Shown here one piece after another: positions 1 through 20,832 of a stretch of DNA of 21,920 nt. The translations under genes and the position numbers were made by a program. Each line of letters starts with the position of its first letter. Position 1 is the first letter of the stretch. The stretch is from the NCBI GenBank assembly GCA_008632985.1, contig QPGO01000186.1:124001-145920 (forward strand), given 5' to 3'. The DNA comes from Psammoneis japonica. Lineage: Eukaryota. Under the pieces are notes generated by a model that was given only the letters and a program-made list of their open reading frames with translations, was not told the origin of the DNA and did no database searches.

Positions 1-21
1 TTTTCGCAGCGGAGTCCGGTC

Positions 22-1730: not shown

Positions 1731-1851
1731 ACCTCCCGCAAAACATACGGTAAGTATGCATCAGAAAAAGCGATTTACAAAAAGACTCTAAGTACAAAAG
1801 AAAGTGCCGTAGTCAAGACTAGCAACAAAGCTTGAAGCGTCAAAACCAAAC

Positions 1852-3897
1852 TCATTCCATGACGAGTGGCTCCCCGCCACCGCCATTTTGTTCCCGAACA
1901 TCATTGATTAGATCAGTATCTACTTTCAATACACCCTTTTCATCTTTGTAAAGAAGGTTCACGAATTGGTATCCAATACTTAAGTCCACAAAATCATATA
2001 TCTTTTGAGCGTAGACGTCTGAGGCACTCACGTTTGAGACACCATTCAAACTCACAAGAATCTGATTGAATTGAAGACTTTCCCTCACTTTAGCGTAGTT
2101 GTTGAGCGATCTCGGCCACGAGCCTTTGCTTCGTCGAATGAGTTTCCTAGCCCTAGGAGTAAGAAGAGGAGAGGTTTCATCAAGAACATGACGAGCCAAC
2201 CAAACTCGTTTGAAAAAAGGGTGCTCGCTTGCCTCAATCAGAAGCTTCGAGAAAATTCTCTTGTTCACAAGCTTTGAAGCTGGGTCCTCGTCCACAGCTT
2301 GATGATCCTTTCCCTTCCCCAGAAAATATGACAGGCCGCTGCCATGAAGAGTGGAGTCCATGAAATTCAACGCGGCACCCGAGTCAGATCCATTCTCGCT
2401 ATTTGAAAATGTCGAGGCAGAGCTGTTCCCCAAGAAACGTTGCCTATCAGTGTTTAGAGCGTCTCGCAGAATAGGATCCGCATCGTCGGCGTCAATGTTT
2501 GCCACACAGTTGAGCGACGCGTCCATGATTTCACCCCCAACTTCCCCAAAGAGGCGATTTACGATACGAAACTCCAACACTGGTAAAGGTAATTTCTGTG
2601 GCAACCCGCTGTCTTCGTCGTTGTTGTCCGCCTCGGCGAATTCATCTTCTACACCACTGCCAAAGCGAATAACGACGGGGTCGCTAAAAAGAACTTGAGC
2701 ATGGCTCTGGATACGGAGAACCTTTCCAAAGAGAATAGCGCCACAGAAACCAGAATATAGAACACCAACGAACGACTCCAACGAGCAAATGATCGTGATA
2801 AAGGCGCAATTCGAAGGATTCGAGTTTTCGTGACCAAGAGCTGGATACGTGCTTCCGTATCCCCTGCAGAGTTCAAAGAGATCGAGAAAATCATCATTGA
2901 GGAACCTTCTTACAAATAAGCATTTTAATATAGATTCCAAAACCAAAGCGAGAACTTACACCGTACTGAAAGTTGTCCAACTCAAAGCAAAGGCATCAGC
3001 AAATTTCGATTTGCCTCCTTGGTTGAATTCTAAGCCTCCGACTCGAACACACTGAGGGTCCATGTCACCAGCAATAATTATGAAACCGGCAAAAATGAAG
3101 GTCAGCCCGAAAAAGACAATGCAACTTATCAGAAACAGAAAGACAAAGTTGACCCTGAACATCCAGTGTAAGTACATTGCAAGGTTTCGCTTCCTGTTCT
3201 CGCCTTCAGCACGAGTGCCCGCGCCGCAACAAATAATACGCCGGTACATTCTCTTTCGCCAGTTGGAATCTCTCTACGGAAACGATAACAGAGATATGAA
3301 CAGAAAGAAATAAAATGAAAAATGATAAACAGAAAGTCATGTCAATTCTTGGCGTAAACCGCAGACTTACACGTCTTGTAGCGGCTAGCCTATACTGCTT
3401 GACTCGACCCTCTTCCAGAGACATGGACTCATCTTGTCTATGGAAACTTGCCTCTAGATTCGCAGGTCGTTCACAGCAGCATACTCGACGGAATAAGTTT
3501 CGCCATCGGTTCATGAATCTCTCTCGAGACCCCATAGCTTGAGCTTGATTCTCGCATCGCACCTGATACCGAGTGATCACAGGCAGAGTGAGTTGAATTG
3601 AATACACAACTTATAATTGACACAAATTGAAAACACAACATCATAAGTATTTAGAATCCCCTTGTTACTTTCGTCACTGGATTTCAACAATTCCGACGTT
3701 GCATAGGGACGTGACAGCGGCTCACGACTTACAAACACGGCTTGGCATCGATCACCCTCTTCATCGGCGGCAGGTGTAGTATCAACCGCCGGTTCTTCAT
3801 CAGCGATACTCTCTGGACGGGAAATACTACGAGCCCGAAGACCACTGGTCGCTCTGGTACCAATGTGCTCTTCCGTGTTGATGTCGTTGTCGACCAT
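1852..3897 (-). CDS. Inward-rectifier (Kir-type) potassium channel, 4 exons: 3897-3733, 3562-3371, 3273-2960, 2863-1852 (560 aa)
   Basis: Three GTAAGT...AG introns (3732-3563, 3370-3274, 2959-2864) join in frame to 1683 nt. Splicing builds the selectivity filter WTTFSTV-GYG. M1 and M2 helices and Kir motifs AQVLFSDPVVI, LEFRIVN and HVLDETSPL are present. An upstream ATG at 3996 is an alternative start. Confidence 0.9.
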
Positions 3898-4041
3898 GGT
3901 GCGGCATACGTACGTACATCGCAACTCGCAACTTTTTGTGATCTTTGGGACGGGCCGACGGTTCGTTTTGAAGTCTTGGTCTGACCATGCCACCATGCGG
4001 TCTCAGTGATTTTTCGCCATTGCTTGCCGGCACTGCTGCAG

Positions 4042-4061
4042 TAGCTACTCTAGAGTAGCTA
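4042..4061. promoter_or_regulatory. Perfect 20-bp palindrome TAGCTACTCTAGAGTAGCTA upstream of the Kir gene
   Basis: The palindrome is read directly. Its core ACTCTAGAGT also occurs at 1634-1643. A regulatory role is inference only. Confidence 0.4.
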
Positions 4062-4869
4062 GTCGACAGTGCGTGCCAGAGTTGTGCAAACAGCAGCGAA
4101 GTTATTTTTGTCATTGAAAAATCTCGACGCTGAAAATGCTTGTCGAAAATCGGCTTTCGACAGCCACTAAAACAGTTGCAGTGACTGACGAAAGCCTTTT
4201 TTCGACATCTTCGGTTGCAAGAGAGCTGCAGAGCAAGAGCAAAGTCCTGAAACATTGGGTTCCCTGGCAATTTGTGTGATGTTCATGGAGGCACCTCTCA
4301 TCAACGGAAACTGGCAAATGATTTGAAAGATTTTTGCACGCTTTTGGCGTGCATCTTCAGGCAAATCCGAGGATTGAAATGCCCGGCAACTCCAACAACA
4401 CATTGAACCCCAGCTCCATCCACCCCCCGTCCCTCACTCAAAACAAAAACAAGAAATTGATGCACATGCCATGGCTGTTGACAATGGTGAACCACAACCC
4501 AATTCGCCCAAAAGGAAACAAACTCATCTCCACAAGAAAGCCGTCAAGTCCTGCAAGAAGTGCAGGCAACCTCCTGAAGAGATCGTGGTTCACACCGGGG
4601 CTCCGTCCGCCAGCTGAGCCCAAAGAACCAGAAGAAGCCATCACCACACTGGTGCTTTGAAGCAATGCGGCATGAATGTCCTCAAGAGAATGAACCAAGG
4701 TCATTGAAAATGACATCTTGCTCAGCAAAGCTCTTCATGGTGATGACCACAAAGGCGTCATCAACGTGAACAAAGCTCAGAGGCATGCCACAGCTTGTGC
4801 ATTTTTGAGCTTCTTGACATGCCTCCTGAGGAGGAATGGGATGGTCAGAATGGAGCAATGCTCACAATT

Positions 4870-5150
4870 AAAAAAACCTGCACATCTCTCTGGGATCGAA
4901 TGTCAAAGACATCTTGCACAACATCACTCGCGACCATGAAATCGCATCGAGTGCAGCGGTGACAGGATCACAAACAGCACCATTGGCCTGTGTCCAATTG
5001 TGTCTTTTGGAAAAAAAAACCCTTGGCATCTCCCTGGATCAAATGTCAAAGACATCTTGCACAACATCACTCCAACCACGAAATTGCATTGAGTGCAGTG
5101 GCGACAGGATCACAAATGGCGCCCGTTGGCCTGCATCCAAGTTTGTCTTT
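4870..5150 (+). repeat. Diverged tandem duplication, 2 copies, period 143 bp
   Basis: TGTCAAAGACATCTTGCACAACATCACTC occurs at 4901 and 5044. Most differences between copies are CG vs TG/CA or TG vs CA. Confidence 0.85.
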
Positions 5151-5866
5151 CGATTTGCAAGAAGCCAAGATCGTTGGCAACAACATTGAAAAAGGACTTT
5201 TGGCACCCCAGACAGCTCAACTTTGCAATAAGCACCAGCATGAGCAAGGGAAAACTGCACTTGCAAGTGCTTCTGTTGACAACTTGACAGGGCGGGTGGG
5301 TGCCAAGGCACAGAAAGCCAAGACGACAAAACAAGGGAACAAAGATCCTGACTCTCCCTGGTCATGAGGAAGATGCAATTGGACTTGCCAGCTGTTGGTT
5401 TGGTTGGAAACAATTGGAGCACAAAAGAGAGCTGACAGAGATCCTGAAAGAAGTTCGCTGCTGCTCACACCTCCAGTGTGTGCCGTTGCCATCATTCCCA
5501 AACCTCCCATGGCAAGGAGCTGTTGATGATCAGCTTTCGTCTGGCTTTCTCCTTTTGCACCCGGCCTGTCATTGTGAGAAAACAACCACAACAAACACTC
5601 TCAGCCCTCCTGTTGTCTCAGCACACCCTCATCTGGGGACATTTCAACCCACAATTTTGGGCCCAGCTGCAAACAGGGGACATGGCTGTGGCCAGTTTGC
5701 TTCCTGGCACCCCACACATGCAAAGCAAACAATGGCGCCCCAATTCCCACCATGAATGGTGCAGCAGGGACCTCACTTGGGTGCTGCACCGCCATCAGTC
5801 TCTCAAAACGGTGGACGAAATTTTGAAAGCATGCTTGTTCTGGGGCGTTCAAACGTTCAAATCAAA

Positions 5867-6020
5867 ATGGCTGGGGCCAACTCAAACAAAGGTTTCATTG
5901 CTCAAATCATTGGTCCTGCACTGGACATTGAATTCCCATCAGGAGACTTGCCTCCTGTTTTGAGTGCAACAAAATTGAGCTGGAACACGGCAGCACAACC
6001 ATTGTGAGGTGGCTGCAACA
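5867..6020 (+). pseudogene. atpB: 5' fragment of plastid ATP synthase beta subunit (probable nuclear plastid DNA insertion, NUPT)
   Basis: Translates MAGANSNKGFIAQIIGPALDIEFPSGDLPPVLSATK and, after a 1-nt shift, IELEHGSTTIV. This matches the AtpB N-terminal pattern G.I.QIIGPVLDIEFP.G.LP.I..AIKI..IVEVQQ. Frameshifted and truncated. Confidence 0.85.
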
Positions 6021-6237
6021 GTGTCCGTTCAGGTCTTTAGTTCGCACTTTTCATTTTTGACACATGCAATCGCACTTGCACGTGCCAGCTGCGCACAAAG
6101 ACAATCAACACGGTCTGTCTGCCCATCCACCAGAATCTGCATGATGCGACCACTGCTGTGCTGCGGTGCGGCAGCCCGAGACACTGCAGCAAACTCATTC
6201 AACAACACCCGTGCACCCATGCACTGTGGCCTCGAGA

Positions 6238-6495
6238 TTCATCGTGAGACCCTGCAAATGTGGAGGGACCCTCCTGTGGAGCTCTGCGCGAATTTTTGCA
6301 CGTGGTGCTGAAACATGCAGCCCACACACGCAAAACTGGTGCAGCACAGTTTCTGCAACAAAAATCCGAAAAAACGCCCAGTTCGCGAGATGGCTCTGGC
6401 ACAAAACCTGCGTGAACAGTCCCCACACATTCATGCAGAACTCTGCACATTTCCGGGTTGCGGGTCCTTCCACATTTGTGGGGTCCCACGATGAA
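6238..6495. mobile_element. MITE-like element, 258 bp, with 34-bp terminal inverted repeats
   Basis: 6238-6271 TTCATCGTGAGACCCTGCAAATGTGGAGGGACCC vs reverse complement of 6462-6495 TTCATCGTGGGACCCCACAAATGTGGAAGGACCC (30/34). A subterminal inverted repeat lies inside. No clear target-site duplication. Confidence 0.65.
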
Positions 6496-8844
6496 GATGC
6501 CAGACTTCGTCCTTCAATGCGACCTCAGCCTTGACCACCTCTGCCACAATGGTTTTCCCCACCAAACTGTGTGCTCATTCATTGCCAGGGGTCTCGAGCA
6601 GCAAGGGTTGTAGCGGCACCAGCAGTCATGCTGGCATGCAGACGGCCATCCTGTGGGGTCGCACTCCACATCTCAATTGTCACCTCTTTGCCCCTGCAGT
6701 CGAAGTCAGGTTTGGAGTCGGGACATTTTGCCGCCTCGACCATGAACAAAGATTCAACTTTGTCAATGTCAGACAAAAAAGATGACATCTTTTCCTTGAC
6801 CGATTTTGTGATGACCGATGTGCACAAGATGATCAGCTAGGCCATTTGGAAGGGCGTTGAATGGCAGCAAGATTTGTGTTGTCTCCATAGATTGACCAAG
6901 GCAGAATCATGCAAATGCTTTAGCCATGCTGCATTGCACTTGGGCAACAATGCGTTTCCAGATGATGCCACCAATGAAAAACTCTTTTGCCATGCAAAGC
7001 AAGGTTGGTTCTTTCTCAAAGAGGCAGACCAACTTGCCAAGACTCGCATGAAAGAAGCCATGGATTTGGACCAGTGGGCGGTTGCGCAAAACAAACTGGC
7101 TGGGGTTTGGTGCTGAAAAGGATGTCTTGTGCTTGTCCTTTGCAAGGGAATGCAGATGGGGGCTGTCCCATGAACACCGTGCCTTTTCTGCCAACAAACG
7201 CTGACTTGCGTGGTCTGAGTTTTCGTCTTCTAATGCAACAAGGGCCTTTCTTCTGTTCAGCTGGCTGCCACCACACTTGTCACACCTGTCCAATGGGCCC
7301 AATGCAAGGCAGAACAGTTGACTCCATGGTGCAGTCGACTCTGATGCCAGGGCAAAATGCTGACATTCAATGGTGGCAAACATTTGGGATCTGAAACAAT
7401 TTCTAGTTTCAGAAAAAAACATTAGATTGACCTGACTGACATGCAAGTTCATCTCCTAAAAAGCCATTTGAGTTGCTTCTTTTGCTGTTTGTGCTCCAGC
7501 CGCACTTGGCAATGGCCACAATTTTCTCCAATCTAATTTGCCTGAAAAATTTGCAGTGTCATTTTTGTGAAATTCAGTGGAAGAGGCGATGAATGGCTGC
7601 TGTTGTAATTTCACAGATTGCTGTTTGCTGGAGCAGGCACTGTCAGGTGCCGGCGATGCCCGTGGCGCATGAACGGTGGGCGGAAACTTCCGGCAATCCA
7701 AAGGGGAAGATGCTGGGAGAATGTTTGATGAACCCTGTTGGTCACATGTTGAGTCACACCTGCAGCAAGAGTCCCTCATGCAAAGTCAATCAAATTGACA
7801 ATCGTGGCGAAGCATTTCATTTGGCGGTGCATTGGCTTGATTGTTTGCAGCAGGAAGATCCAGCATGCTTGCCACTCTGCCAAGAACTGTGCCACCATCA
7901 AAGCCAAATTGTTGAAGAATTCAAGCACTGTCAAGGTCATGCTGTCGATCTGGGCAGGTGCTTCTTGTTTGATCCCGACAAAGGCAAAATGGCGATGAGC
8001 CCTTCACCTGCCCTTTCAACCATTTTGGATCATTTTGGATGCTGAAGTGAAGATGTGTTGGGTGCAGCAACATCGGCGCTTGGTTAAAAGAAGAAACATC
8101 CTTCATGTTTGTGGGCATTCAACAGCTCATGTGCACAAATGCTCGCACCACCCTTTTGTTGTGTGTTGTTGCTGCCAGTGTCACCATGTGATGCTGCCAC
8201 TGCAACATCTTGCATCTCACAATCACCAACATCTTGCTGCTCACAATCATCGAGGCGCAGTTGTGGCAGTGGCAGCCATGACATTGTCAACAAGTCAACT
8301 GCACATGCACATGATTTGAATCTGTGCCTGGCATGGTCACAAAATGCAAGTTTGTTTTTCAACTGCGCTGGCTTGTCCTTTCTTTTCAACAATCCCGGCT
8401 TCAATGTTGGCATCGTCAACCACCTCTCTGATCTGGATGGCCAAATCCATCCACCAAAATGACACTGTTGGGACAATCTGTTGAGTTGTCATTGAATCCA
8501 CACTGACTTTGTCAAATGCAGCAAACAGCAGCACTGACCTTTGCCTTCTTGACAAAAAGTCCTCCCCTCAAATTCATTTTGTGCATCGCAAAGCCATCAT
8601 TGAGAGCTCCAACTTTGATCCATCAGCAGCAGCCAGAATTTTGATGGCGTTCCCAATGGCGATGATCCAATGCAAAAGAATGATCAAGTCTTTTGACAGT
8701 CTGCTGCATGCGTTGTTGGAACATGGAACAAACAAATCCCAAAGATGCCACCGATGTGGTTTTCCCTCTAGAGAGTCAGTGGACTTGGAAGCAGCAGGGG
8801 CTGCATGCCCATCATTGACATTGATGGGAAAGTCTGGGTCTTCA

Positions 8845-9092
8845 CACTTCATGATGCAAGCTCTCCATCAAAGAAACAAGTGTCCTGAGAGTCTTCTTGG
8901 TCATGCAATCAGCTGGCATTTGATTGGCGGGCAATGCTCAATCAGTGCATTGCCTCTGATGGCTTGGTCATGGACAAGAAACATCTGATGTTCAATGCAC
9001 TGGTTCGCTGCCCAGAGCTCCTCTTTCATCAGTCTCTGGGAGGATTGCAGCCTTGTTGTCTTGTCAGATGGCATTCCGTGTTGCATCACACC
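8845..9092 (-). mobile_element. Ty1/Copia (CoDi-like) remnant, 3' half of RNase H
   Basis: Minus strand reads GCDATRNAI*QDNKAAILPETD, then FLVHDQAIRGNALIEHCP and MPADCMTK in shifted frames. This matches Copia RNase H (YQDNKSAILLE...IEYCPT..M.AD..TKPL). Confidence 0.85.
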
Positions 9093-9459
9093 TGCACTAT
9101 GCTCGAAGAACGAGTGTAAACGAAAGTAGAATGGTGTACGAAAAGTGGAAATTATAAGATTAAATTTTGCTCTGTGATTTTTGGTTTCTCCGAACGAGTT
9201 CTCAATGGCCTAAAGCTTCTGTACTGCTTCTACAGACAAAAGGCCTTTCGGAGAATATATTCGTGACAACAGATTGTCCGGATACGATTGCTATTGACAC
9301 GTAAGATGTCAACATCGTCAATCGATCGTATTTGCAATTCTCGACATCCGATCAACTCTGTGTGATCGTTCTGTCCTTTGTACGCATCCACGACTGTGGT
9401 ACGATTGACATGTGAATAATATATAATCATAAATATGTATATAACAGTCGCATACTGCA
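9093..9459 (-). repeat. 3' LTR of the non-autonomous Gypsy element (367 bp)
   Basis: 360/367 identical to 13464-13830. Terminal inverted repeat TGCACTATGC...GCATACTGCA. Confidence 0.95.
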
Positions 9460-9471
9460 TTCGCCTCCCTA
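9460..9471 (-). other. Polypurine tract of the non-autonomous Gypsy element
   Basis: Minus strand AGGGAGGCGAA directly precedes the TG of the 3' LTR. It resembles the PPT of the second Gypsy (GGGGAAGCGAG). Confidence 0.8.
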
Positions 9472-12400
9472 ATTGCACATTAGAGTCATTTGTAAGTGGA
9501 TTATTCGACGGACATCGACAGTGTCAATAATGTCTCCACTTTCACTGTATTGTGCCATTAGCAATAACTGTTGTTGTTTTGTATAGGCAATATAGGGCCG
9601 TTCCAATTTCCGAATGTCTTTTGAGAGTGACATTGTTTGTTTCTCACTTAACATGTATATATATAGTATTACGTCGAGCATTCTCATTGACGTTCTTGTT
9701 GACATGAACACAAGGACTAATTGTCCTGGAGCAAGTGTTTTTCCTGACATCGATTGTACATAGCATCGTGCCCAGCACTTAATGTACGCTCTTAATTATG
9801 GCGTTCACTTGCTTGCTTCTTGTGGATTTCATGCAGTTTGGCGGGCTTGCTTTACATGCCATGTTGCTCTGCTGCACTGCCACGTTTCACAAGCAACAAC
9901 AAACGATGGTCAAAGACATTGTGACCATTTCGTCTTGACAATCAATCCTGTGATGGTCATGAATTCCATTGTGGATTTTTTTTTTTTGCACTTCAACCAT
10001 CTATCAGTTGGATTTTAATCGTCATTTGGACGTTTCTTTCTGACACACCGGTGTCATTTTGTCATTCCGAAGGCACTGGTTTCGTGCACCAAGTGGACAA
10101 ATGTCCATTTTTCTTTTCTTTTTCTAGATCTTTGGCACATCTCGTGTGTCGACATGATGCACATTTTAATGTCTTGCCTCGTACATTGTACAACACAACC
10201 GCACGGGTGTTGTGAGATTGTCTTTTGCCAGTGTGAAGTGGGTGCGTATAATGTGCACCAATCTGTCACTGTTTTTTCCTAAATCGCCCTTCAAAAAGGC
10301 GATTTTATCCTTGTGACATGAGCATTTTTCGATCTCGCTCGCCTCCACGAAAAGTGTTCGTATGATGTGTCGCGTCCGACAATTTGGAGGGAATGTCTTC
10401 ATCCCGTTTTAACGGCAGGACATTGTCGCAGGATTCAATTTTCTGTGGCAAGTCGGCTGATCGCGTCTGTCGCGACGATGTTCGCCTTGCCCTCGTTGTG
10501 TTCTAATTCGGGACTGAAGTTGTCAACGTGTGACTTTGTCCGTTGTGTCTTGTGATCCATGTGTGCATAAATCTGTTGGCCAAACAGCATGTTTCGGAAT
10601 TTTGTGAGTGTTTTCACCATGGACAGAAGTTCTTTTTTCCGTTGTGACGCACAACATTGAAATCCGTGCATGACAACAACACAGTTTTTGATTTGATGCA
10701 CTCCACATTTTCGGAGACTTTTCGTTCCGCACTTGTGCTTTTGCCGTTTGACCTTTGTTGAGGTGAATTTGGCTGGCATTGCACAGGAGATCGTTGAGAC
10801 TGCATGTCTCGACAACAGCAACGCATGACAACGAGATGTCGCAGTGTTCTTTGCGTTTTTCTCGTGTTGCGATTGCTTGAATCGCCTCCATTTTCTTTGC
10901 AATCGATTGCATGTCGTTGCGTGTGGAAGTCTTGATAGTTCATTTCAAGTTAAACAGTGAAGGACTTTTGTTGTCAACCTTCTAAGCGACTGTTCTGGTC
11001 GTTTGAATGCCGCGTTGAGCTGTTGCTTGTGCAGGTGACATTTTGAAGTTACTTTTGTCAGGCACAAACGATCACATGTGGTCATTCTGACAACTTCAAA
11101 CCTGTCATGAGTTCACTCAAGTGTTGTGCAAAAACATCTGGGGCTCTGTGGATTCTCATTGGAAGTCCACAGTGCTCATTTTCTCCCCACGGCATGATTT
11201 TCGTGTGAGCACGACGTGTGCTTTTTTTATTTGACATGGTGGCATTCCATGTTTGAATCAAATGGATCACACACATGAAACGTTCTTGCTTCAATGGCAT
11301 TTCCTGAATGTTGGGCAAAGGACACACCACCTGTGTGAACCTCACACTGAGCTTCTGAGTGTCGGATGCGGTCGAACTCGACCTGTTTTCTTCAGACAAT
11401 GAGTCTCAGAGCGACTCATTCAGAGCAACTTCATTCTCAAGACTTCAATCTTTCACAATGGGTCAAACTCCTTTTGATTGGATGCCTCCAAAGACTGTGA
11501 CAGGAGAAGGTTCTCACGCGTCGTGGAATCGCGTCAGATTTTCCACGATGAGATCCACTGATGCTTCCCATGCATTCGTCTGAGGAACTTTTCAAAACGA
11601 TTTCAACCTCTTAAGAAGAAGATTGAGTTGGTTGTGTTCATTTGGGTTAGATGCATCGCCGCAGTTGTCACTTGATTGAGATCGATGGCGTGACAATGTG
11701 AGTCGAGGACCATTGGTTCCATCATCAACTCTGTTCACGGCGTCACATTTTTCAATGTGATCGGTTTTCAGCTTGAAAACATCGGCATCGAAGAGTGTGT
11801 GAACATTCTTCATAAGGTAATTGCTTCTTCCCATTAGATTTCTTCATTTGCGTAGTCCAATGTGACTTGCAGGACTGGACATTAAGTCGCGTCCCATGAT
11901 CACATCATTCGAACCTGAAGAAAATTTGGTGTTTTCAACATTCACTGTTTGCATGTCAGCATGCCTTAAATTTTCGCACAGTGAGAACTGAATTCGGTGT
12001 TTACTATCAGTCGTAAAGAGCTCACCCTTGGTTTCCCAAGTTTTTGGTGGCGGATTCTTGTGTTCTCAACTTTCGCACGAATTTGCGCAAAATTGTGGTT
12101 GACGATGTTCCGTTATCGACAGGAACACGTAGATGCTTTTTTTTTTTTTTTCTCTCCTTTCCCAAGGAAGTGTTCATACAAATGATGACTCCTGGACTAG
12201 TGTGAATTATTTCTGCCTTTTTTCTAGGCTTCCTAACATCCAGCAAAGCATGTAATTCGTGAATAGACCAAAATTATTCTTCGGATTCAGTCTGGATCAT
12301 CCGATCAAATTGGCATTTTTCTTCACTGAGGGTATCAGAATCTGATTCTTTGCCCTTATGCTCTTTTTCTTTGTTCAAGGAACTCGCTTTGAGCATTTTT

Positions 12401-13463
12401 TGAACCGCCTGATCAATCATGACGTTCATCTCTTTTTTTGCGAGCGGCATTTTCGTTGTCGCGACGCGACCGCGTGCGATTGCCATTTGAACGGCGCATT
12501 TTTGGGTCTCTTTCAGAGTCACCCTTGCACTCTTTTGCTAGTTCATTTTTAGAACAGCTTCAATCCGTGATGTAGGTATTCTTTTTTCAAAGATAAGACC
12601 TTGCATTCACTTTGGATTGTTCTGGTACCACACAGGAGACCATTTTTGGAACCAAATTTGGAACCTTTTTTATTTTGGAACCAACTGCGCTATCAGAGCC
12701 TGAGTTGATATGTATTTTCGTCACGGACGTCATGAACGACCTTTAGATGACTCAAAACTTAATCAGCTCATCAAGGATGAGTTGCAATAGTTGATTGTTT
12801 TGGACAGTAGACTGATGCTGCCATCCTTGCGGTGCGAGTGATGGCCAATAGCTCACGGCTCGGTTTCCCGCTAGATTCAACATAGAATCGATTGAAGGGT
12901 CGTGTGGACGCTCTTCATTGACCTCTTGGGTCGAATGGGCACTCTCTTGCTGCTGAGAGCCTTGGGTTTCTTCAGATCATCTCGAAAATAATGATTCTGA
13001 TTCTGAAGTGCAATTCTTGGAGGACATGAGATAAGAGACTCTTAAGGTACTTTCCAATGGTTCCATCTTGCTCTTGGACTCGAGGCTCGTCGATTCGGTC
13101 TCTAAAAACTCTCCAATAGTCTCTCCTTGCATGCCAGACGTATTTCTCGGACCTGATCGACTCAAGACTTGAAATTCTACCCAACCATGACTTGGTGTGG
13201 ATATTTCGACAATGCTGTGCTCTTGTAGAGTCCTTGGTCCTGAGACACTTGGAATGGATCGTATTAGAACGAATCTTGTCATTTGCTAGACGAAAAACAG
13301 CGTTCCATCTTGAGGTGCTGCTCGGATTGAGCTTCTTCCGCTCGGAAATCGATTCCAGCAGAACTGATGCGATTCGTTCCTGTTTATAGAAGAATTTACA
13401 AAGGCACATTAGTTAAAATTTTCATTTTCCGTGCTTTTTACCTTCTGTGGTGTGTATACACAA

Positions 13464-13830
13464 TGCACTGTGCTCGAAGAACGAGTGTAAACGAAAGTAG
13501 AATAGTGTACGAAAAGTGGAAATTATAAGATTAAATTTTGCTCTGTGATTTTTGGTTTCTCCGAACGAGTTCTCAATGGCCTAAAGCTTCTGTACTGCTT
13601 CTACAGACAAAAGGCCTTTCGGAGAATATATTCGTGACAACAGATTGTCCGGATACGATTGCTATTGACACGTAAGATGTCAACATCGTCAATCGATCGT
13701 ATTTGCAATTCTCGACATCCGATCAACTCTGTGTGATCGTTCTGTCCTTTGTACGCATCCACGACTGTGGTACGATTGACATATAAATAACATATAATCA
13801 TAAATATGTGTGTAACAGTCGCATACTGCA
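13464..13830 (-). repeat. 5' LTR of the non-autonomous Gypsy element (367 bp)
   Basis: Direct repeat of 9093-9459 with 7 substitutions and no indels, followed by CACC. Confidence 0.95.
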
Positions 13831-13834
13831 CACC

Positions 13835-14420
13835 CTTGTGCCTCCACAAAGAGCTTGGTTCACAAGACCATCACACTGCAATCATCGACGGTGACAAGCT
13901 CTGCAGTTGTGCTGGAACTGGCGCTCAGCTTCTGTTTTCATGAGATCCATTGAACAGCTCCTCTTTGGATGTTGTTGAAGATCTGGGTGCCTCTGGCATG
14001 GCTCTTAAAATCAGATGTGCTGCAAAACTTGCATTGACAAACCATTTCACCACAGAGATGTCTCACTCGGTGCCAATTTGTTGAGCGCTGAACTTGGTGC
14101 AATCCAGCCATTTTGTCACAATGACAAGACTCTGCTGCCAATTGTTCTCAGCAGGTTCCTTTGCTCTTGCACACAGGACTGCAAAAACATGTTGGATGTC
14201 CTCACCCTTTTTAGCATGCTTGCAATTGAACAGAGCCTTCTTGGCAACAAAGGTCCTGAAGATCTCATTCGCCACTTTTGGCCGAGCAGTTTGTCAGGCT
14301 TGTGATCAAATGGATCATCTTGAGCTGGGTTTGCACAAGTGACATCAGGCACAAACTTGATGGGGAATTTGTTTGCCATTGACACGACACACTGGATCAT
14401 GTCCATCTCTGGGATTTTCC
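13835..14420 (-). mobile_element. Ty1/Copia (CoDi-like) remnant, end of RT and 5' half of RNase H; continuous with 8845-9092
   Basis: Minus strand reads DMIQCVVSMANKFP, EIFRTFVAKKALFNCK..DIQHVFAVLCARAKEP, VKWFVNASFAAH, and DFKSH..S*KQKLSASSSTTAELVTVDD..TKLFVEAQG. Confidence 0.88.
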
Positions 14421-14449
14421 AACCAATGAGCTGTTTGTCTCTTCATCTG

Positions 14450-14670
14450 TGTAAATTGCCAATGTTGTGAGGTTCAATGCACTTCCCAGTGGCTGGTCAA
14501 TCTGCCTGAAATTTTGTGCATTCGGCCAATGAGAAGTGGGTCCCACCAGCCAGCATCTGCCCTCCACCAATTTAGTTGGGCAGGCTTGTCAATTTTGGCT
14601 TGCTTGTTGTGCAGACAGTTTTGGGTTGCAGGCTTGACTTGTTTGATTGCTTCCAACACACTCCTGTTCC
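14450..14670 (-). mobile_element. Possible Copia PPT/3' LTR start (CAGGAGTG|TGTTGG, LTR starting at 14658)
   Basis: Minus strand GGAACAGGAGTGTGTTGGAAG resembles the junction I recall for diatom Copia elements. No partner LTR in the window and the extent is uncertain. Confidence 0.4.
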
Positions 14671-15430
14671 ACACTGATCAGGGTGCAAGGTTGAATGATG
14701 CATGGAAGATTGTGGGTCTGCAAAGCTCCAGATCTGGAGTCACAGCTCCAGGACATCTGGATCCAGGTTGTGTCCATCTGTCCTCTCCCCAGTGAGCTCC
14801 ACCCGGATGACATTCGTTGCATCACACTCACACACATGTGATGTGGATGGCATTGATTAAGGCTGGGTCCATTGCAGTTACAGGACAATGTAGAATTCAG
14901 TCTAGTGCGGCTTTGGTGCAGCTGTTGTTGGTCGTACAGTGGGCCAAGTATCAGCAACACATGAAACAGCAATGTAATGTTGTGCGGTAGATGCTGTTTT
15001 GGTGTGTCGACTACGGTGACAACACCGATGTTCGACGCATCGCCTACGGCGACAACAACAACGAGAATAGCCGGTCGTCGTTGGTTAACCACGCTGACAA
15101 CTGGAAGAAACACAAACGTCATCGAAACAACCTTCTCTGGTGTATCAATGCAGCCAAGAACGGGCATGAACAGGCGATAAATGGATTTGAAACGACTATG
15201 TTAATAAGGAAACAACTAAACTGGACACTTCGGGTCCTCGGCATGTCATCGGATAGAATGGAACGAAGTAGCGACGACATATTGCAAGTGTAAAATAGGA
15301 TGGCAAGGATCGACGTAACGTGTAAACGCGGCGGTCCCATTCAACACTTCATTCTTCAAGCTGGCTCGTGGTATTGTAGATAAGTTGTCATCACCATCAT
15401 CTATTCCTAGTCAAACCTCCCCACCGATCA

Positions 15431-16393
15431 TTATTTCTTTTTCTTCGGATCAGGCTTGTTGTTCAGGTAGATGTACCATTGAAGAGCGGTTGCAACCGCG
15501 ACCCAACCACAGGTAGGCAAAAGGTAGTAACCTGCCACTTTATCCAAGTCGTAGAACAAGTACGCACTGCTCAATAGGCATGCAAAGAACAGGGTGATTA
15601 CGGCCGCGCCACGACCGGGACATTGCAGACCAAAGAACACTTTATTCCAAGTGTCACCCAATGCCAGATGGGAGCAGTACACGAACAGCACCCCCAATGG
15701 AAGTGACGTCGTCCCGTCGATTTTTGACGTGCCATATTTTAAGATCCTTGACACACCACATAACTGTGTGGGTTTACTGATCAAGAGCCACATGATCGGG
15801 AAGACGTATCCTGGTGGATTCCACCATGGTTTCTTAAGTTGAGAATACCATTGGCTATCTCCCGGGATGACGTCCGGTGCGAGAACTTGGTTGGTAGCGG
15901 CAGAAAGCCCTCCATCGATGAACGATCCGAAGAAGGAGCTAGCGAAGATGATAAGGAATGCTGCCACAAGCTGTGTCAAGGGCAAGTTGAAGACAGACGG
16001 TATCGAATCGGGATACTTGTCAGACAATGCCACACTTCCCACTAAGGTCCCTAACATCACCACCGCCTCCAATACAGCGCTGATCGCAAGCTTGGCGAAT
16101 AGACTTGGATCGGAATCAGCACATCCCCCACCACGTAGTGTTTCTACCAATATCAAAGTCGAAGACGGTAAATGACTTGTTAGTCCATTGACATTGGGAA
16201 CATCGATTTCTTTGTCGATACTGTGACGACGGGGATGAAGGCTGTGACGTTGTTGCTGTTGGTGAAGCGTAACGGTGGCCCAACCGTTCGGGTTCGGAAC
16301 TGCATCGACACCACCACCCGCGAGTCCCAACAACAACAAAAAAACACCACCACAAGAAGTGATATACAAAGCGAGACGCGTTCCAATCTTCAT
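15431..16393 (-). CDS. tspO: TspO/MBR family protein with signal peptide and N-terminal extension (320 aa)
   Basis: Motifs WYSQLKKPWWNPPGYVFPIMW, WNKVFFG and LLPTCGWVAVATALQWYIYLNN. Likely start MKIGTRL at 16393 (ORF open to 16462), with a hydrophobic signal peptide, a TLRGG motif and C-terminal KKKK. Confidence 0.9.
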   Translation of the reverse strand: MKIGTRLALYITSCGGVFLLLLGLAGGGVDAVPNPNGWATVTLHQQQQRHSLHPRRHSIDKEIDVPNVNGLTSHLPSSTLILVETLRGGGCADSDPSLFAKLAISAVLEAVVMLGTLVGSVALSDKYPDSIPSVFNLPLTQLVAAFLIIFASSFFGSFIDGGLSAATNQVLAPDVIPGDSQWYSQLKKPWWNPPGYVFPIMWLLISKPTQLCGVSRILKYGTSKIDGTTSLPLGVLFVYCSHLALGDTWNKVFFGLQCPGRGAAVITLFFACLLSSAYLFYDLDKVAGYYLLPTCGWVAVATALQWYIYLNNKPDPKKKK

Positions 16394-16827
16394 GGCGATC
16401 CGATTCAAGTTCAGTACCGGTAGAAATGTTGTTGTTGTTTCTATTTCAATTTCACGGTTCATTTTTTTAGGGTTTTTTAGGGAAACCTTTTATTTACGGT
16501 ATCCATACTGTACTGTACGGTACTTACGCTGTGTGTGGAGTTCAAGCACGTGCAACGTCACCCAGTGGCGCGGGGGGAGGGCAGACCCAAGATGATCCGC
16601 AGATCGAAGATCCTGGATGTCTCGCCTCTTCTCGCCTGGGACCTGGGACAATCATTATGGTAACATACTGGTAACAAGCCTTGACGCTCCGCCCTTTTCG
16701 ATTCCCTCCTGAAGCAGAAGTACTAGTAGGTCGAAACGAGAAGGTCTGAAGATCGAGGAAGCAAAACGTTAATAGTGTGTAATTCTCTCTTGCATTTGAT
16801 CTGTTGATTCTTCTCTAATTTTCCGCA

Positions 16828-17944
16828 ATGTCGTCAGTGCCTGAAACCATGAAGGTATGTACAGTAGATGAAAGAACAAGCTTGAAGTGTGGTGCACGTT
16901 TTCCTTTTAACTTTCAAATCCACCAAACACCAAACGACTCAATTCCCATCGCAGGCAGTAGTGATTCATGCTACTGGTGATGCTCAATCTCTCAAGGTCA
17001 CGACCGATTATCCGACACCAACTCTCGAGCCCGGCCAGGTCCTGGTCAAGAATGAATTTGCAGGAATTAACTTTATCGACACCTATCACCGCAGTGGACT
17101 GTATCCTCGTAAGTTGCCCTTTATCCTTGGCGTGGACGGTGGTGGCGTTGTTGTTGCGGTAACTCCCGAGGCTGCTGACGTCAAAGTGGGAGATCGTGTT
17201 GCCTACAGCATGGTGGAAACCTATTGCGAATACACGGCGGTGCCGGCATCCAAGCTTGTTCCTGTTCCGGACGATATGGACATGACGGTTGCTGTAGCGT
17301 GCATGGTCCAGGGCTTGACGGCTCACTACCTCACCACGTCGGCTCATGCAAACCTGATTCAAAAAGGAGAATGGTGTCTCATTTACAGTGTTGGTAGTGG
17401 AACTTGTCAGTGGGCCGCTCAAATGGCAAAAGCAAAAGGTTACAAGGTGATTGGAACGTGTTCCAAAGGAAAGGCTGACGCTGTGCGAGCACTGAATTGT
17501 TGCGACGAGCTCATTGTGTTGGAAGAAGTTCAGGGAGCGTCGTATTCGGATTACAGCAGCGTGGATATAGTTGAAAAAGTAATGGAGGTTTCGGGTGGGG
17601 AGGGCGTGAAATGCATTATTGATGGAGTTGGAAAGTCAACGGCCGACGTTTCATTGAGTTGTCTCGCAACAAGGGGCATTTTCATTTCGTTTGGCAACGC
17701 GTCAGGGCCTGTACCTGCCTTTCCAGTGCTAAAACTGGGTGGAAAGTCAGCTTTTGTGACTCGCCCAAAGGCGAGCGATTACACAGCCACGCGTGAAGAA
17801 CTCATGGATCGAGCGCGCGATGTGTTCGGTTGGGTAAAAGACGGAACACTGAAAATTGTGGTGGACCAGGTGTTTGCCTTGGAAGATGCTGTGGATGGTC
17901 ACGTCTATCTGTGCCAAGTGGCGCCAAGTAATAGTATAAAGTAG
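16828..17944 (+). CDS. qor: NADPH:quinone oxidoreductase (zeta-crystallin/MDR family); exons 16828-16854 and 16955-17944; last 10 codons are LTR-derived
   Basis: MSSVPETMK, a 100-nt GTATGT...CAG intron, then AVVIH. Motifs AGINFIDTYHRSGLYP, VQGLTAHYL, DGVGK and FGNASG. Similarity stops at HVYL (17911), where the LTR begins. Confidence 0.9.
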
Positions 17945-18223: not shown

Positions 18224-20728
18224 TTAGAAGACAGGGTGAAGACGGCGGATATTGATACGTTCAGTGACGTGAGGCGAGCGCTGGATGGTAACGGTTCCAT
18301 TGGTATGGACACGTACGATACGGAAAGGACCATCTTTGGTGTTGAGTTTGCGTTGGATGTCTTTGGTCATAACGAAGACTTGATCGCCGATGTTGTAGTC
18401 GTAAGTAAGACGTTTTGCGTTTTCGCGGAGATTATTGCGTAGGACATCGCGCTTGCGACGGGTATTAATCATTTTCCAGTTCGCAAGATAAGTAGCAGAA
18501 ATGACCATGTCTCGACCGAAGACAATTTGTCCGGGAGACGACATAAGGGCAGTATGGTAGGTACTGCGCAAGGCCCATGCAACGGATTGCAAAATTCCAT
18601 GAATTGTGTCTTCATCATGATCGCGAGAAGGGAGATCCATCGCACGGAGAGAATCGGCTATTACTTGATGAATACGTTCAACGAACGCGTTGGCTTGAGG
18701 ATTCTTGATTGTTGTAGGTTTCGGTTTAACACCATAACTGTAGAGGAGATCTGTAAACTCGGAAGTGAATTCGGAACCGTTGTCATAAATGACAATTTCT
18801 GGTCGCGGATAGCGACAAAACCACTCGCGATCGACGATAAGTGAAATGTCTTCGGACGTTTTGAACTTATAGTTCGCGAGTTCGACCCAACGGGTTGCGA
18901 CATCAATAATTGAAACGGCTCTGATTTTGCGATCGACACCATTTTTGTCGGCACACGTCCAGGGACCGAAAAGATCGACTTGAGTTGCCTGCCAAGGTTT
19001 ATAAGTAGTATCTGGAAGAGGTAATTCGCCATAGTTTGCCGTAGCACGCTTGGATTTGGAACACGTGCGGCACTTACGGACAAAAGTGCGGACTTTCGTC
19101 TGCATGTCGCGAATGTAAAAATGTGAAGCCAAAGTTTGGCAGGTGCGATTGGCACCAGGGTGGCAGAGAGTTTCATGGTGCCACCGTAGAACTGCAGGAA
19201 AAAGCGTTGGAGGGAGGACAATCTTGTTCTTGTAAAGGACAATCTGTTTTCCATTGAACAGTTCGGCTGAGCAGGATTCGGACTTGTCGAGTCGTTGCTG
19301 AAGAGCAGAATTTTTTTTCTGATGGTCGGCGACAATGTCGAAAGTAATGGGGAATGTCGAAGGATCGATTTCCAACGAAGTCATTTCCTCGTAATCGCTT
19401 TGATCGACTTGGACAATGGGATGGCGGCTCAAAAAATCAGCCACGACATTCTCATGGCCTGGCAGGCACTCGAAAGAGCAATCGCACTCCTCGAGAAGTA
19501 AACGCCAGCGTTTGACGCGTTCTGACTTGAATTTGTCAAATGCAAGATTTTTGTGATCGGCAAATGGGTGGCATCGATGACCAAAAAGGATGCTTTTGAA
19601 ATTTTCGGTCGTTTCCACGAGCGACAGCAGCTCTTTTTCCATTGTCGTGTAGTTTCGTTGCGCTTGAGACAATTTTCGGCTGTAGAATGCAATTGGCCAT
19701 TCGCCATCATCAAAATCTTGAGCAATCACTGCACCAAGTTGACAATCACTCGCATCCGGATAGATCTTGAAAGGTTGAGAGAAGTCGGGGAATCGGAGGA
19801 GGATTTCGCGCGCCACAATTTTTTTCATCTGATTGAAAGCTTCCGTGTGGACGTCAGTCCACTTGAATTTGACTTTGTCTGATGACAGCGCAGTTAAGGG
19901 CGCAAGAGTGTGGCTGCGTCGGCACCACAATTTCTTGCAATGATTCACGAACCCGATGAAACCACGCAATTGTCGACGGTTTTGAGGGCGAGCGAAGCAA
20001 AGTGAGGGTGGGATTTTCTTTTTCTGAGGCTGAGTGCCTTTTGCAGTCATGGTGCAGCCCAAGCAGTCGACGGTCTTGGCGGCGAGATGGGATTCTTCGA
20101 CATGTGCGTGAAGATTGTTCGCGAGGAGCCGTTGCAAGACGAGTTTGAGTCGTTGACAGTGATGGTTGAAGTTGTTCTTGGCAAAGAGGATGACATTGTC
20201 GATGCAGACTATGATGTCTTCCATGTCATGAAAAATGTCTGTCATGCAAGCTTGAAAAATGTCGCTTGCCGGTTTGATTCCTTGCGGCAGGCGGTTGCAG
20301 CAATGCTTGCCCCACGGCAGGATGATGCCGCAGAGTTTTTTTGACTCGTCGTCAAGCACGAAGTGACAGTAGCCTCGGTTGAGGTCCAAACATGTCGCAT
20401 GGGCAAAGCCGTTCATTTTCCATGCGACGTCGTCGATGACAGGCAGTGGATGTGGATGCCGTTCGAGACACTCGTTGAGTTTCCGTAAATCGGACAAGAA
20501 ATGGATGCCACCGCTTTTCTTCGATCGGAAAAGACAGGATGCGTCCCAAGGAGAGTGAAGTTTGCGCGTGATGACATCGATTTTTTCCAATTCATCCACT
20601 TCTTTGCGAGCCATGGGACACAACGCTTGCGGAACAGTGCAAGCTTTCGCACAGCATGGACGCGATCCTGGTTTCAGGGTCAAATGGACGGGTTTACCGG
20701 GTGCAGCTCCAAGTGTGCCATCGAACAA
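18224..20728 (-). pseudogene. pol: Gypsy pol (RT-RNase H-integrase), open for 834 codons but with a mutated RT active site (CIDN for YIDD)
   Basis: RT motifs LDLNRGY, RLPQG and VCIDN; RNase H DASD..LGAV and EKELL; integrase HHCC finger, VDLFGP, DNGSEF and NPQANAFVER. Confidence 0.93.
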
Positions 20729-20832
20729 TTGCGGGTCGTCCGAAGAGTTCGATGAGTTGGTGCTGTTGATCGTTCAAGGTGTTTGCAGCGTAGAACCATG
20801 TCGCGACAATTGTGCTTGTCGTGCATTGCTCG

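Follow-up and report, generated by a model that had tools for sequence, protein, structure and literature searches.

Why should the two long terminal repeats (LTRs) of one retrotransposon differ from each other solely by the exchange of TA for TG or CA, and does this pattern reflect a process acting on the chromosome itself? The question is raised by an element on the minus strand at positions 9093-13830 of a 21,920-nucleotide stretch of Psammoneis japonica DNA, the whole of which is referred to here as the window. The element comprises the following features:

9093-9459, minus strand: left LTR (the 3' LTR in element orientation), 367 bp, TG..CA ends, 28 TpA
13464-13830, minus strand: right LTR (the 5' LTR in element orientation), 367 bp, 27 TpA
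9089-9092 (left) and 13831-13834 (right), no strand: target-site duplication CACC, 4 bp
9460-13463, minus strand: internal region of a decayed Ty3/gypsy-like element, every minus-strand frame having 49-53 stops in its 1334 codons
9460-9470, minus strand: polypurine tract AGGGAGGCGAA (minus-strand reading), adjoining the 3' LTR, read directly
10899-11366, minus strand: reverse transcriptase remnant, 22% identity to pol2 (described below) over 157 aa, containing stops
10543-10647, minus strand: RNase H remnant (Pfam RT_RNaseH, E=0.0012; tblastn 47% over 30 aa)

The polypurine tract next to the 3' LTR sets the orientation of the element, and the intact 4-bp target-site duplication favours a single insertion. 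In its TG..CA LTRs, 4-bp target-site duplication, polypurine tract and weak remnants of reverse transcriptase followed by RNase H, the element is like diatom Ty3/gypsy LTR retrotransposons; unlike them, this copy lacks an open frame, and neither integrase nor gag nor a standard primer-binding site was detectable in it. The family to which it belongs is apparently non-autonomous or long-dead.

When aligned as direct repeats, the LTRs are identical at 360 of 367 positions (98.09%) with zero gaps. The first-pass annotation had claimed seven differences, all pairing TA in one copy with TG or CA in the other, split over both copies and sparing CpG in a CpG-rich LTR, and our alignment recovered exactly the sites that it listed (left/right: 9099A/13470G, 9133G/13504A, 9412G/13783A, 9414G/13785A, 9420T/13791C, 9439A/13810G and 9441A/13812G). 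All seven are transitions, with three TpA losses in the left LTR (9132/9133, 9411/9412 and 9413/9414) and four in the right (at the positions equivalent to 9098/9099, 9420/9421, 9438/9439 and 9440/9441), and each TATA>TGTG doublet is confined to one copy. There are 21 CpGs per LTR (observed/expected 1.5), and 0 of the 42 is changed between the copies. Positions at which a transition would exchange TA and TG/CA number 107 of 367 (0.29), giving a chance probability of 1.8e-4 for seven out of seven, or 2.1e-3 when adjacent doublets are taken as single events (5 events). Because a single TA-rich stretch of 41 bp, with 25 eligible positions, contains five of the seven sites, the evidence of the pair alone is suggestive, not overwhelming; in the source organism, the direct test of paired LTRs comprises this one pair. 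In a control set of repeat pairs from 12 related elements on metagenome contigs, TA-type changes made up 29 of 350 differences (8%), or 29 of 203 when transitions only were counted. With TA taken as ancestral, 7 of 124 TpA positions have changed versus 0 of 610 others (Fisher p = 3.4e-6). Without its TpA sites the pair has 0 differences in 610 positions, bearing out the earlier warning that LTR dating would be inflated, and the further claim that this change is faster than all other types combined agrees with both the pair (7 versus 0) and 27 of the 37 listed differences between this copy and its family.

Loss of TpA extends beyond the LTRs, and its limits in the window are defined by the following features:

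4169-9092, no strand: block A, left part, near TpA-free (15 TpA in 4924 bp), with a CA+TG excess and CpG depleted
13831-14857, no strand: block A, right part, 4 TpA in 1027 bp
7629-8039, plus strand: isocitrate dehydrogenase (IDH) pseudogene fragment in block A, C-terminal ~137 aa of a monomeric enzyme of diatom type
15431-16489, minus strand: host ORF with a TspO/MBR domain, rho(TpA) 0.62
16886-17944, plus strand: host quinone-reductase-like ORF, rho(TpA) 0.55
18224-20773, minus strand: pol2, a second Ty3/gypsy pol, an open 849-aa ORF with reverse transcriptase, RNase H, integrase zinc finger and integrase core in gypsy order

Block A, the 5.95 kb around the LTR element, contains 19 TpA versus 390.8 expected, 132 CpG versus 352.9 and 1291 CA+TG versus 743.7, such that the joint TpA and CpG deficit (593) approximately balances the CA+TG surplus (547). 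In a 250-bp profile its borders are sharp (4168/4169 and 14857/14858), and TpA density is normal again from 14858, 574 bp ahead of the TspO ORF. Stop trinucleotides in the 4924 bp of its left part comprise 7 TAA, 8 TAG and 112 TGA. A Pfam search of block A in six frames gave no match besides the one gene fragment, and the block, including that fragment, is without retroelement features. The element interior has a rho(TpA) of 0.35 overall and of 0.00-0.17 in the 250-bp bins from 10501 to 11750; for the interior and for positions 1-9092, which hold most of block A, TpA/ApT is 0.37-0.39 and (CA+TG)/(AC+GT) is 1.39-1.6. In pol2, where rho(CG) is 1.27 with a rho(TA) of 0.34, TpA is depleted from ~19180 to 20790, covering the reverse transcriptase and RNase H part, and the integrase part is normal. 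At a rho(TpA) of 0.55-0.62, both host ORFs are unaffected, making the TspO ORF an internal control. Relatives of the quinone-reductase-like ORF assign the window to a diatom or a near relation of one. The minimum 1-kb rho(TpA) is 0.02-0.15 in the window versus 0.31-0.96 in 78 related loci. Across its 21.9 kb the window contains 107 ORFs of at least 80 aa.

The annotation had looked to protein evidence for the direction of change, and this evidence points from TA to TG/CA, through replacement of Tyr by Cys or His in both pol2 and the IDH fragment. At 27 conserved-Tyr columns pol2 has 8 Tyr, 9 Cys and 3 His, so that 12 of 27 are Cys or His, versus 0-3 (median 1) in each of 120 homologues at the same columns; the 25 top-ranked homologue rows have no Cys at conserved-Tyr columns. 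Replacement of Tyr by Cys/His outnumbers the reverse by 12 to 1. Codon comparison of pol2 with 14 relatives found TA in the relative and TG or CA in pol2 248 times and the reverse 42 times, the sign being the same in all 14 comparisons. None of the 6 conserved Tyr survives in the IDH fragment (2 His, 2 Cys, 1 Val, 1 Phe), and in PDB alignments FYLA-YW has become FHLAVHW.

The state of the family was scored from contigs of the organism's own sequencing runs, a small run (X2) and a large run (X1), the latter of which may be the same sample as the assembly source. A check of the family consensus at the seven LTR sites, as the first-pass annotation had proposed, gave TA in X2 contigs, which represent an abundant family variant, at 9133, 9412, 9414, 9420, 9439 and 9441 (6 of 7 sites; 9099 was without coverage). 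In X1, among the 40 of 633 variable places listed, TA accounted for 70% of summed depth at 9133, 87% at 9412 and 94% at 9414. The family majority differs from the focal copy at 37 listed element sites, of which 22 have TG/CA in the copy and TA in the family; the rest comprise 5 with TA in the copy and TG/CA in the family, 4 of CpG type, 2 other transitions and 4 transversions. Those 22 sites are divided between the strands as 12 C/T and 10 G/A, which argues against editing of the sense RNA. X2 departs from the focal copy by 17 C>T, 18 G>A, 2 A>G and 2 T>C changes, amounting to 39 transitions and 0 transversions, and the variable places in X1 are 543 transitions versus 90 transversions. A total of 4563 contigs could be placed, the family being very abundant and polymorphic, and summed word depth in LTR bins was 38,694-73,086 versus 56 in the flank, although contig depth does not equal copy number. 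Block A, at a depth of 56 in one contig, looks low-copy, and 'repeat' is thus inadequate as a rule for targeting. Family state, block A, Tyr loss and codon asymmetry provide four independent lines of support for TA as the ancestral state that was later lost. In the window TpA gives way to TG/CA within regional limits, and it does so faster than CpG decays.

We consider it probable that a regional process in the diatom or a close relative turns TpA into TpG/CpA in selected chromosomal DNA. Such a process would change A to G on either strand, at TpA, and its targets in the window would be the retrotransposons and an old block carrying a gene fragment, with neighbouring host genes spared. The LTR element would be a young insertion into a block that was already TpA-free; since integration each of its LTRs would have lost 3-4 of ~31 TpAs with no other change, and its centre far more. 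We infer that the changes arose in place after insertion. As to the chemistry, the most likely agent is an enzyme that deaminates adenine in DNA to hypoxanthine and has a preference for a 5' T; TadA/ADAT2-type enzymes act at U33-A34 of tRNA, where a 5' U lies next to the target A. Chromatin or small-RNA marks may serve as the targeting guide. As a change from TA to TG/CA makes no stops and removes TAA and TAG, it leaves long 'ghost' ORFs in which Tyr codons are destroyed. The following observations count against this explanation: 0 of 15 central TpAs of the LTR are mutated (P = 0.007), mutation density in the LTRs is ~5x below that of the element centre, 5 of 27 listed TA-type majority differences run the opposite way, and at 9156 both LTRs have TA, yet 81% of family depth has TG.

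The best-surviving alternative, which we nevertheless regard as unlikely, is that other chemistry leaves the same signature, namely error-prone repair synthesis in silenced chromatin, for instance by a polymerase-eta-like enzyme. Polymerase eta misinserts G opposite T at WA motifs during phase 2 of immunoglobulin somatic hypermutation, and A>G at TA, its hottest motif, fits what is seen here; CpG decay in block A could, in addition, supply the mismatches that trigger patch repair. Against this, the 33 listed element transitions (from the 40 of 633 X1 places listed) include 27 at TpA, 4 at CpG and 0 AA>AG. TpA loss also precedes CpG loss, as judged from pol2 and from the LTR rho(CG) of 1.5, and polymerase error spectra do not resemble a near-total loss (19 of ~391) in which transversions are almost absent.

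We attach slightly less weight again to the suggestion that the process is real in the family but that the seven differences were imported into one or the other LTR, either from other family copies through ectopic gene conversion of short tracts or in the course of assembly or polishing, the family being very high-copy. The abundance and polymorphism of the family favour import, and the left-LTR TG alleles at 9133, 9412 and 9414 are common to 30%, 13% and 6% of X1 family depth; as these alleles are not private, recurrent mutation and import from other copies both fit. Most family polymorphism is of the TA/TG/CA type, so gene conversion would copy the same pattern. However, the imported states would need to be minority alleles at all six scorable sites, whereas polishing errors should bring in majority alleles, and the confinement of TATA>TGTG doublets to one copy each is as expected of one processive event. 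The target-site duplication is, moreover, intact.

Editing before integration, whether by ADAR-like A-to-I conversion of element RNA, by deamination of cDNA or through reverse-transcriptase errors, appears very improbable, even though a 5' U preference is typical of ADAR and the internal region is mutated more than the LTRs. ADAR and APOBEC3 resemble the process proposed here in being deaminase-driven sources of clustered transitions against parasitic nucleic acids, and the 5' U of ADAR fits the TpA context, but they act on RNA or pre-integration cDNA and mark one strand; in the window, the LTRs of one integrated copy differ, both strands are mutated and the changes extend to non-retroelement DNA. 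Since one template gives rise to both LTRs, pre-integration changes would be common to both and not split three and four between them. The strands are about equally represented (12 versus 10), and it is block A, with its IDH fragment, that shows the signature most strongly. Editing by ADAR of the sense strand only is also at odds with the presence in pol2 of both Tyr>Cys (9) and Tyr>His (3), as well as with the LTR split.

An equally slim chance attaches to coincidence, combined with the ordinary bias towards transitions where the LTR is locally rich in TA, or to a sequencing artefact at modified bases. The clustering of five sites within 41 bp lends itself to the former, and base modification could in principle give systematic miscalls, but the chance probabilities for the pair are low (1.8e-4 to 2.1e-3), and neither the window-wide depletion nor the protein evidence nor the family data depend on it. 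An artefact is further contradicted by an X1 contig over 8700-9092, which repeats the same TpA-free sequence with only 3 differences, all of CpG type.

Repeat-induced point mutation (RIP), a process that needs a cytosine-methyltransferase-like protein and premeiotic repeat pairing, is like the pattern in the window in being regional, in affecting repeated or foreign DNA at a YpR dinucleotide on both strands through transitions only, in sparing neighbouring genes and in leaving TA versus TG/CA differences between repeat copies. It is opposite in direction, however, producing TpA from CpA/TpG, turning CAA, CAG and TGG into the stops TAA, TAG and TGA, and lowering GC, whereas here TpA and stops disappear and GC goes up. 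Fungal-type RIP or another C-to-T change at CpA, with TG/CA ancestral and TA derived, is the least credible of all the readings: the LTR pair alone is without polarity and RIP yields exactly such differences, but TpA is depleted and not enriched (rho(TpA) down to 0.02, with both dinucleotide ratios opposite to RIP indices, under which TpA/ApT is high and (CpA+TpG)/(ApC+GpT) low), the 12:1 Tyr replacements, the 248:42 codon asymmetry and the TA majority in the family all run the other way, the host is a diatom-like alga and not a fungus, and in place of premature stops there are few TAA/TAG in the left part of block A and a pol2 that is open for 849 codons despite 12 replaced Tyr.

TpA-erasing genome defence has so far been reported once before, in 2026, in the unrelated alga Bigelowiella natans; no report of TpA-erasing hypermutation from diatoms or LTR retrotransposons was found in the literature. 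That preprint (Mettrop et al., bioRxiv 10.64898/2026.01.13.699255) describes B. natans mutation-accumulation lines in which a pair of integrated viral regions gained 231 mutations, 230 of them A>G or T>C, all at TpA, with a de novo rate of about 1e-7 to 1e-6 per site per generation in some lines only; TpA-depleted CDS were enriched in reverse-transcriptase and DDE domains, and the Discussion cites the 5' U preference of ADAR. B. natans and the window are alike in the near-exclusive change of A>G/T>C at TpA to give TpG/CpA, in its confinement to regions beside normal host DNA, in running against the usual GC-to-AT bias and in the long-term trace of TpA depletion with CpA/TpG gain. They differ in host, B. 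natans being a chlorarachniophyte (Rhizaria) and the present organism a diatom-like stramenopile. They differ also in targets, which there are single-copy giant-virus and virophage insertions mutated de novo and here are LTR retrotransposons and a gene-fragment block, as inferred from standing sequence, and in depletion, which is mild in B. natans (NCLDV region rho 0.45) and reaches 0.02-0.12 here. Diatoms, stramenopiles, LTRs and retrotransposons have 0 occurrences each in the accessible part of the preprint (10.64898/2026.01.13.699255).

We tentatively propose, as a possibility that we would not yet favour, a programmed 'reverse RIP' common to diatoms and chlorarachniophytes, in which a guided DNA adenine deaminase erases TpA across the SAR supergroup. 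A shared process of this kind would act on retrotransposons, integrated viruses and stray gene copies, would remove stops and thereby leave long dead ORFs of intact appearance, would destroy Tyr codons and TA-containing signals, and would speed up LTR-divergence clocks; the centre-outward gradient in both retroelements would record the spread of the guide, be it a small RNA or a chromatin mark.

LTR-divergence dating in such genomes must leave out TpA sites, upon which all seven differences found here (1.9%) vanish. With TAA and TAG gone, dead elements will be annotated by gene finders as long 'intact' ORFs, such as the open 849-aa pol with its conserved Tyr lost, and old targets will escape repeat and homology searches. 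For base-editing research, too, a naturally occurring DNA adenine deaminase that prefers one dinucleotide would be of interest. If the pattern is genome-wide, TpA-specific A:T-to-G:C hypermutation would be documented in a second lineage, its first among stramenopiles, and for the first time with LTR retrotransposons as targets. Comparison of two distant genomes would then offer a way to look for the enzyme, and the B. natans case would seem less a peculiarity of a single alga and more an instance of a genome defence widespread in eukaryotes.

The retrotransposon at 9093-13830 is bounded by two LTRs that align without gaps and are identical at 360 of 367 positions.

Features of the focal retrotransposon
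9093-9459: left LTR, 367 bp, TG start and CA end, one member of the window's only long direct-repeat pair
13464-13830: right LTR, 367 bp, TG start and CA end, the other member of that pair
9089-9092 and 13831-13834: target-site duplication CACC, identical four bases flanking both LTRs
10899-11366: faint reverse transcriptase (RT) remnant, element interior
10543-10647: faint RNase H domain remnant, element interior

A purine run, AGGGAGGCGAA, adjoins the left LTR on the minus strand and thus orients the element on that strand, making the left copy the 3' LTR. Primer-binding sites usually open with TGG, matching the 3' end of a tRNA; at the expected position beside the 5' LTR (13440-13463, minus strand) no TGG start was found. 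Each minus-strand frame of the 4-kb interior contains 49-53 stops per 1334 codons, and because this interior is stop-ridden and holds only faint RT and RNase H remnants, the element reads, from its sequence, as a decayed Ty3/gypsy-like retrotransposon.

Realignment of the LTRs recovered the same seven differences listed by the first-pass annotation, and no others. All seven are transitions that pair TA in one LTR with TG or CA in its partner (TA-type differences), and they are split across both copies as described, with TA absent three times from the left LTR and four times from the right. The statement that CpG is not involved also held, as none of the 21 CpG per LTR (observed/expected about 1.5) differs between the copies. 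Two TATA>TGTG doublets (9411-9414 and 13809-13812), lying on the same strand, are each confined to a single LTR, the pattern that one processive event altering two adenines 2 nt apart would leave. Of the 15 TpAs at the centre of the LTR, none is changed (P = 0.007).

Transitions would swap TA with TG or CA at 107 of the 367 LTR positions, giving a chance probability of 1.8e-4 for seven TA-type differences out of seven, or 2.1e-3 when the two adjacent doublets are counted as single events. Because five of the seven sites share one TA-rich stretch of 41 bp, in which 25 positions are eligible, the pair by itself is suggestive and not conclusive. As an empirical control, differences were classed in the internal repeat pairs of 78 metagenome loci that encode relatives of pol2, the second Ty3/gypsy pol ORF of the window. 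This revealed 350 differences, comprising 147 transversions, 124 other transitions, 50 CpG-type and 29 (8%) TA-type changes. With TA taken as ancestral, 7 of 124 TpA positions in the focal pair have changed versus 0 of 610 others (p = 3.4e-6). Chance was considered as the source of the pattern and rejected.

The decisive evidence lies outside the LTR coordinates, in the dinucleotides of the surrounding DNA and in protein comparisons. A dinucleotide profile placed the element inside 5951 bp of nearly TpA-free DNA (block A; 4169-9092 and 13831-14857) with sharp borders: on the left TpA stays dense through 4168, and on the right dense TpA resumes at 14858, leaving 574 bp to the TspO ORF.

Dinucleotide steps in block A
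TpA: 19 observed, 390.8 expected
CpG: 132 observed, 352.9 expected
CA+TG: 1291 observed, 743.7 expected

The deficit of 593 TA and CG steps is matched by a surplus of 547 CA/TG steps. Given the TpA deficit and the CA/TG surplus, only loss of TpA to TG or CA is possible, and not a TpA-making process. Fungal RIP resembles the pattern in leaving TA versus TG/CA differences between repeats; however, it runs in the opposite direction, and in the element interior and 1-9092 the RIP indices point the opposite way to RIP, such that a TG/CA-to-TA direction was rejected as incompatible with the depletion of block A. Editing of RNA or cDNA before integration, of the ADAR or APOBEC type, would be common to both LTRs and strand-specific, and was rejected since the LTRs differ and both strands are changed.

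The window has two host ORFs, in which the observed/expected ratio for TpA, rho(TpA), is 0.62 (TspO/MBR protein) and 0.55 (quinone-reductase-like protein); it is 2.0 in intergenic DNA at 1501-1750. The best relatives of the quinone-reductase-like protein share 63-73% identity with it, and the named ones among them (63-68%) are all from diatoms, including Cyclotella, Corethron, Mayamaea, and Eucampia, which places the host among the diatoms or their close relatives. Across the focal element rho(TpA) is 0.35, falling to 0.00-0.17 between 10501 and 11750 (250-bp bins), with the LTRs its least depleted part at 0.80-0.82. Two further minus-strand ORFs, 22-1143 and 1852-2955 (373 and 367 aa), had no Pfam match, and rho(TpA) in their region is 0.13-0.33 in some 250-bp bins.

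As conversion of TA to TG or CA makes no stops and removes TAA and TAG, its targets retain long uninterrupted frames. Block A has 7 TAA, 8 TAG, and 112 TGA in its left part (4924 bp), and all of its reading frames are long-open; the window as a whole has 107 ORFs of at least 80 aa. Across 3400-9092 and 13831-15430, Pfam searched in all six read-through frames returned a fragment of isocitrate dehydrogenase (IDH) only, and a search for terminal repeats at the borders of block A returned short local hairpins only. Block A may be an old transposon, a captured gene fragment, or a foreign insert. It is apparently low-copy in X1, a sequencing run of the source organism, so that repetition alone does not define a target. 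Block A also contains a 143-bp tandem repeat (4883-5150; 1.9 copies, 84% matches) whose differences are CpG-type. Two adjacent TG-versus-CA double mismatches occur in it as well; these were set aside as evidence of TpA loss because independent decay of one CpG fits them equally.

Two coding sequences in the window were compared with their homologues.

Coding sequences compared
7629-8039, in block A: 3'-terminal ~137 codons of a monomeric isocitrate dehydrogenase, Pfam E = 4e-17
18224-20773, minus strand: pol2, an open 849-aa ORF with RT, RNase H, and integrase domains

The best relatives of the IDH fragment, at 45-54% identity, include enzymes from the diatoms Cylindrotheca, Attheya, and Pseudo-nitzschia, and full-length IDHs used as tblastn queries matched these C-terminal ~137 aa and no further part of the gene. 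Measured against 68 homologues, the fragment has kept none of six conserved tyrosines, with His and Cys now at two of these positions each and Val and Phe at one each; in alignments it reads FHLAVHW where solved structures have FYLA-YW. Its arginine codons now encode Cys, His, or Gln, the outcome that CpG decay would give.

In pol2, where TpA is scarce between about 19180 and 20790, 27 columns were examined that hold Tyr in at least 60% of 120 homologues. At these columns pol2 has Tyr at 8, Cys at 9, and His at 3, versus 0-3 Cys or His per homologue (median 1), and none of the best 25 of the 120 homologues has Cys at any of them. Tyr-to-Cys is the commonest pol2 substitution overall and has reached the RT active-site box, usually Y-x-D-D, where it is the sole change specific to pol2. 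The box reads Y-I-D-N in 13 of the 13 closest relatives, and the D-to-N change was rejected as a mutation of pol2 because they share the Asn. At the codon level, comparison with the 14 closest metagenome relatives gave 248 cases where a TA of the relative corresponds to TG or CA in pol2 versus 42 of the reverse, with the same sign in 14 of 14 comparisons, which are mutually non-independent; the CpG trend was opposite (66 versus 140). The 78 pol2-related metagenome loci served solely as controls, and none is TpA-depleted to the degree of the window, no 1-kb window among them having rho(TpA) below 0.31. pol2 looks like a "ghost ORF", open only because the process removes stops and makes none. 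TpA depletion peaks over the RT-RNase H part of both retroelements (10501-11750 and 19251-20750) and the loss fades toward the ends (LTRs, integrase, gag side), which suggests that targeting starts in, or centres on, the most conserved part of a retroelement.

The state of the family, the genomic copies related to the focal element, was read from sequencing runs. X1 contains 61% of sampled words from window positions 8000-15000, and may be the sample behind the assembly itself, while X2 and X3, tiny runs of the same sample, contain small parts. Contigs from the runs, 4563 in total, were placed on 8700-13463, spanning flank, one LTR, and interior. The flank is covered by one contig only (depth 56), versus summed contig depths of 38,694-73,086 in LTR bins and 4,938-14,597 in interior bins; the family is clearly very abundant by contig number and depth ratio, both approximate since contig depth is not copy number. 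A 21-nt pattern from the LTR core had 0 matches when scanned against metagenomes.

Because contigs from a tiny run assemble from the commonest variant only, those of X2 report the abundant variant. One (9100-9221) differs from the left LTR at 9133 and 9156, and another (9251-9493) at 9412 and 9414. As these are their sole differences, six of the seven sites (9133, 9412, 9414, 9420, 9439, and 9441) read TA in the abundant variant, in agreement with the family consensus anticipated by the first-pass annotation; 9099 lies outside the contigs. In X1, TA accounts for 70% of depth at 9133, 87% at 9412, and 94% at 9414, among the 40 sites listed of 633. The TG alleles of the left LTR are thus common to 6-30% of family depth, and it is possible on this evidence that the LTR differences were imported from other family copies and did not arise at the locus.

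Contexts were read from the window for 37 element sites that differ from the family majority, among the same 40 listed of 633. The focal copy has TG or CA and the family majority TA at 22 of them (12 and 10 by strand), and the reverse holds at 5, a skew toward TA in the family (p = 0.0015 for listed sites). The rest comprise four sites with CpG in the family and CpA in the copy, two other transitions, and four transversions; TA-type changes thus make up 27 of 33 listed transitions versus 22% expected (binomial p = 7e-13). Relative to the focal copy, X2 has 17 C>T, 18 G>A, 2 A>G, 2 T>C, and 0 transversions, and its differences are about fivefold denser in the interior (37 in 716 bp) than in the LTR (4 in 365 bp). 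Position 9156 (and 13527) is TA in both LTRs and TG in 81% of family depth, and TpAs lost by the family are likewise retained at 9566, 12006, 12788, and 13044, indicating that the lineage of the focal copy kept TpAs that the bulk of the family lost. The single-copy flank differs from its X1 contig at three listed sites (8753, 8928, and 8999), all CpG versus CpA/TpG, which makes CpG decay the second process at work in block A.

That TA is the ancestral state, as first proposed, is borne out by the TpA-depleted block A, the tyrosine loss in the IDH fragment and pol2, and the 248:42 codon asymmetry; the first-pass observation is confirmed and its interpretation, including direction, supported. 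Most likely, a regional process in chromosomal DNA converts TpA to TpG or CpA. It would erase TpA on both strands while respecting target borders, and would far outpace CpG decay, because pol2 and the LTRs are TpA-hit yet CpG-rich, whereas block A has lost both (rho for CpG 0.07-0.7, versus 1.2-1.9 in the younger elements); block A is presumably older than pol2 and the LTRs. The seven LTR differences would then be the earliest marks on a young insertion. For the chemistry, we infer that an enzyme with a 5' T preference deaminates adenine to hypoxanthine, which, TpA being palindromic, would give an identical outcome from either strand; the TATA>TGTG doublets on single copies fit a processive enzyme.

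A full-text literature search found the signature unreported for diatoms or LTR retrotransposons. A 2026 preprint (bioRxiv 10.64898/2026.01.13.699255) on Bigelowiella natans mutation-accumulation lines reports 231 mutations within two viral insertions, of which 230 are A>G or T>C changes, every one at TpA, at a rate about 1000x background and in only some lines, with an ADAT2-like deaminase as the proposed cause. It is a close match to the signature of the window, and its main text mentions neither diatoms, stramenopiles, LTRs, nor retrotransposons. Stramenopile-specific deaminase-SAM-Tudor proteins, listed with no known role by Iyer et al. 2011 (PMC3239186), are no more than a lead as candidate enzymes. 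The phenomenon in the window is of the same kind as that described months ago in B. natans, which belongs to a different supergroup lineage, and compared with it the window shows a more extreme state and different targets.
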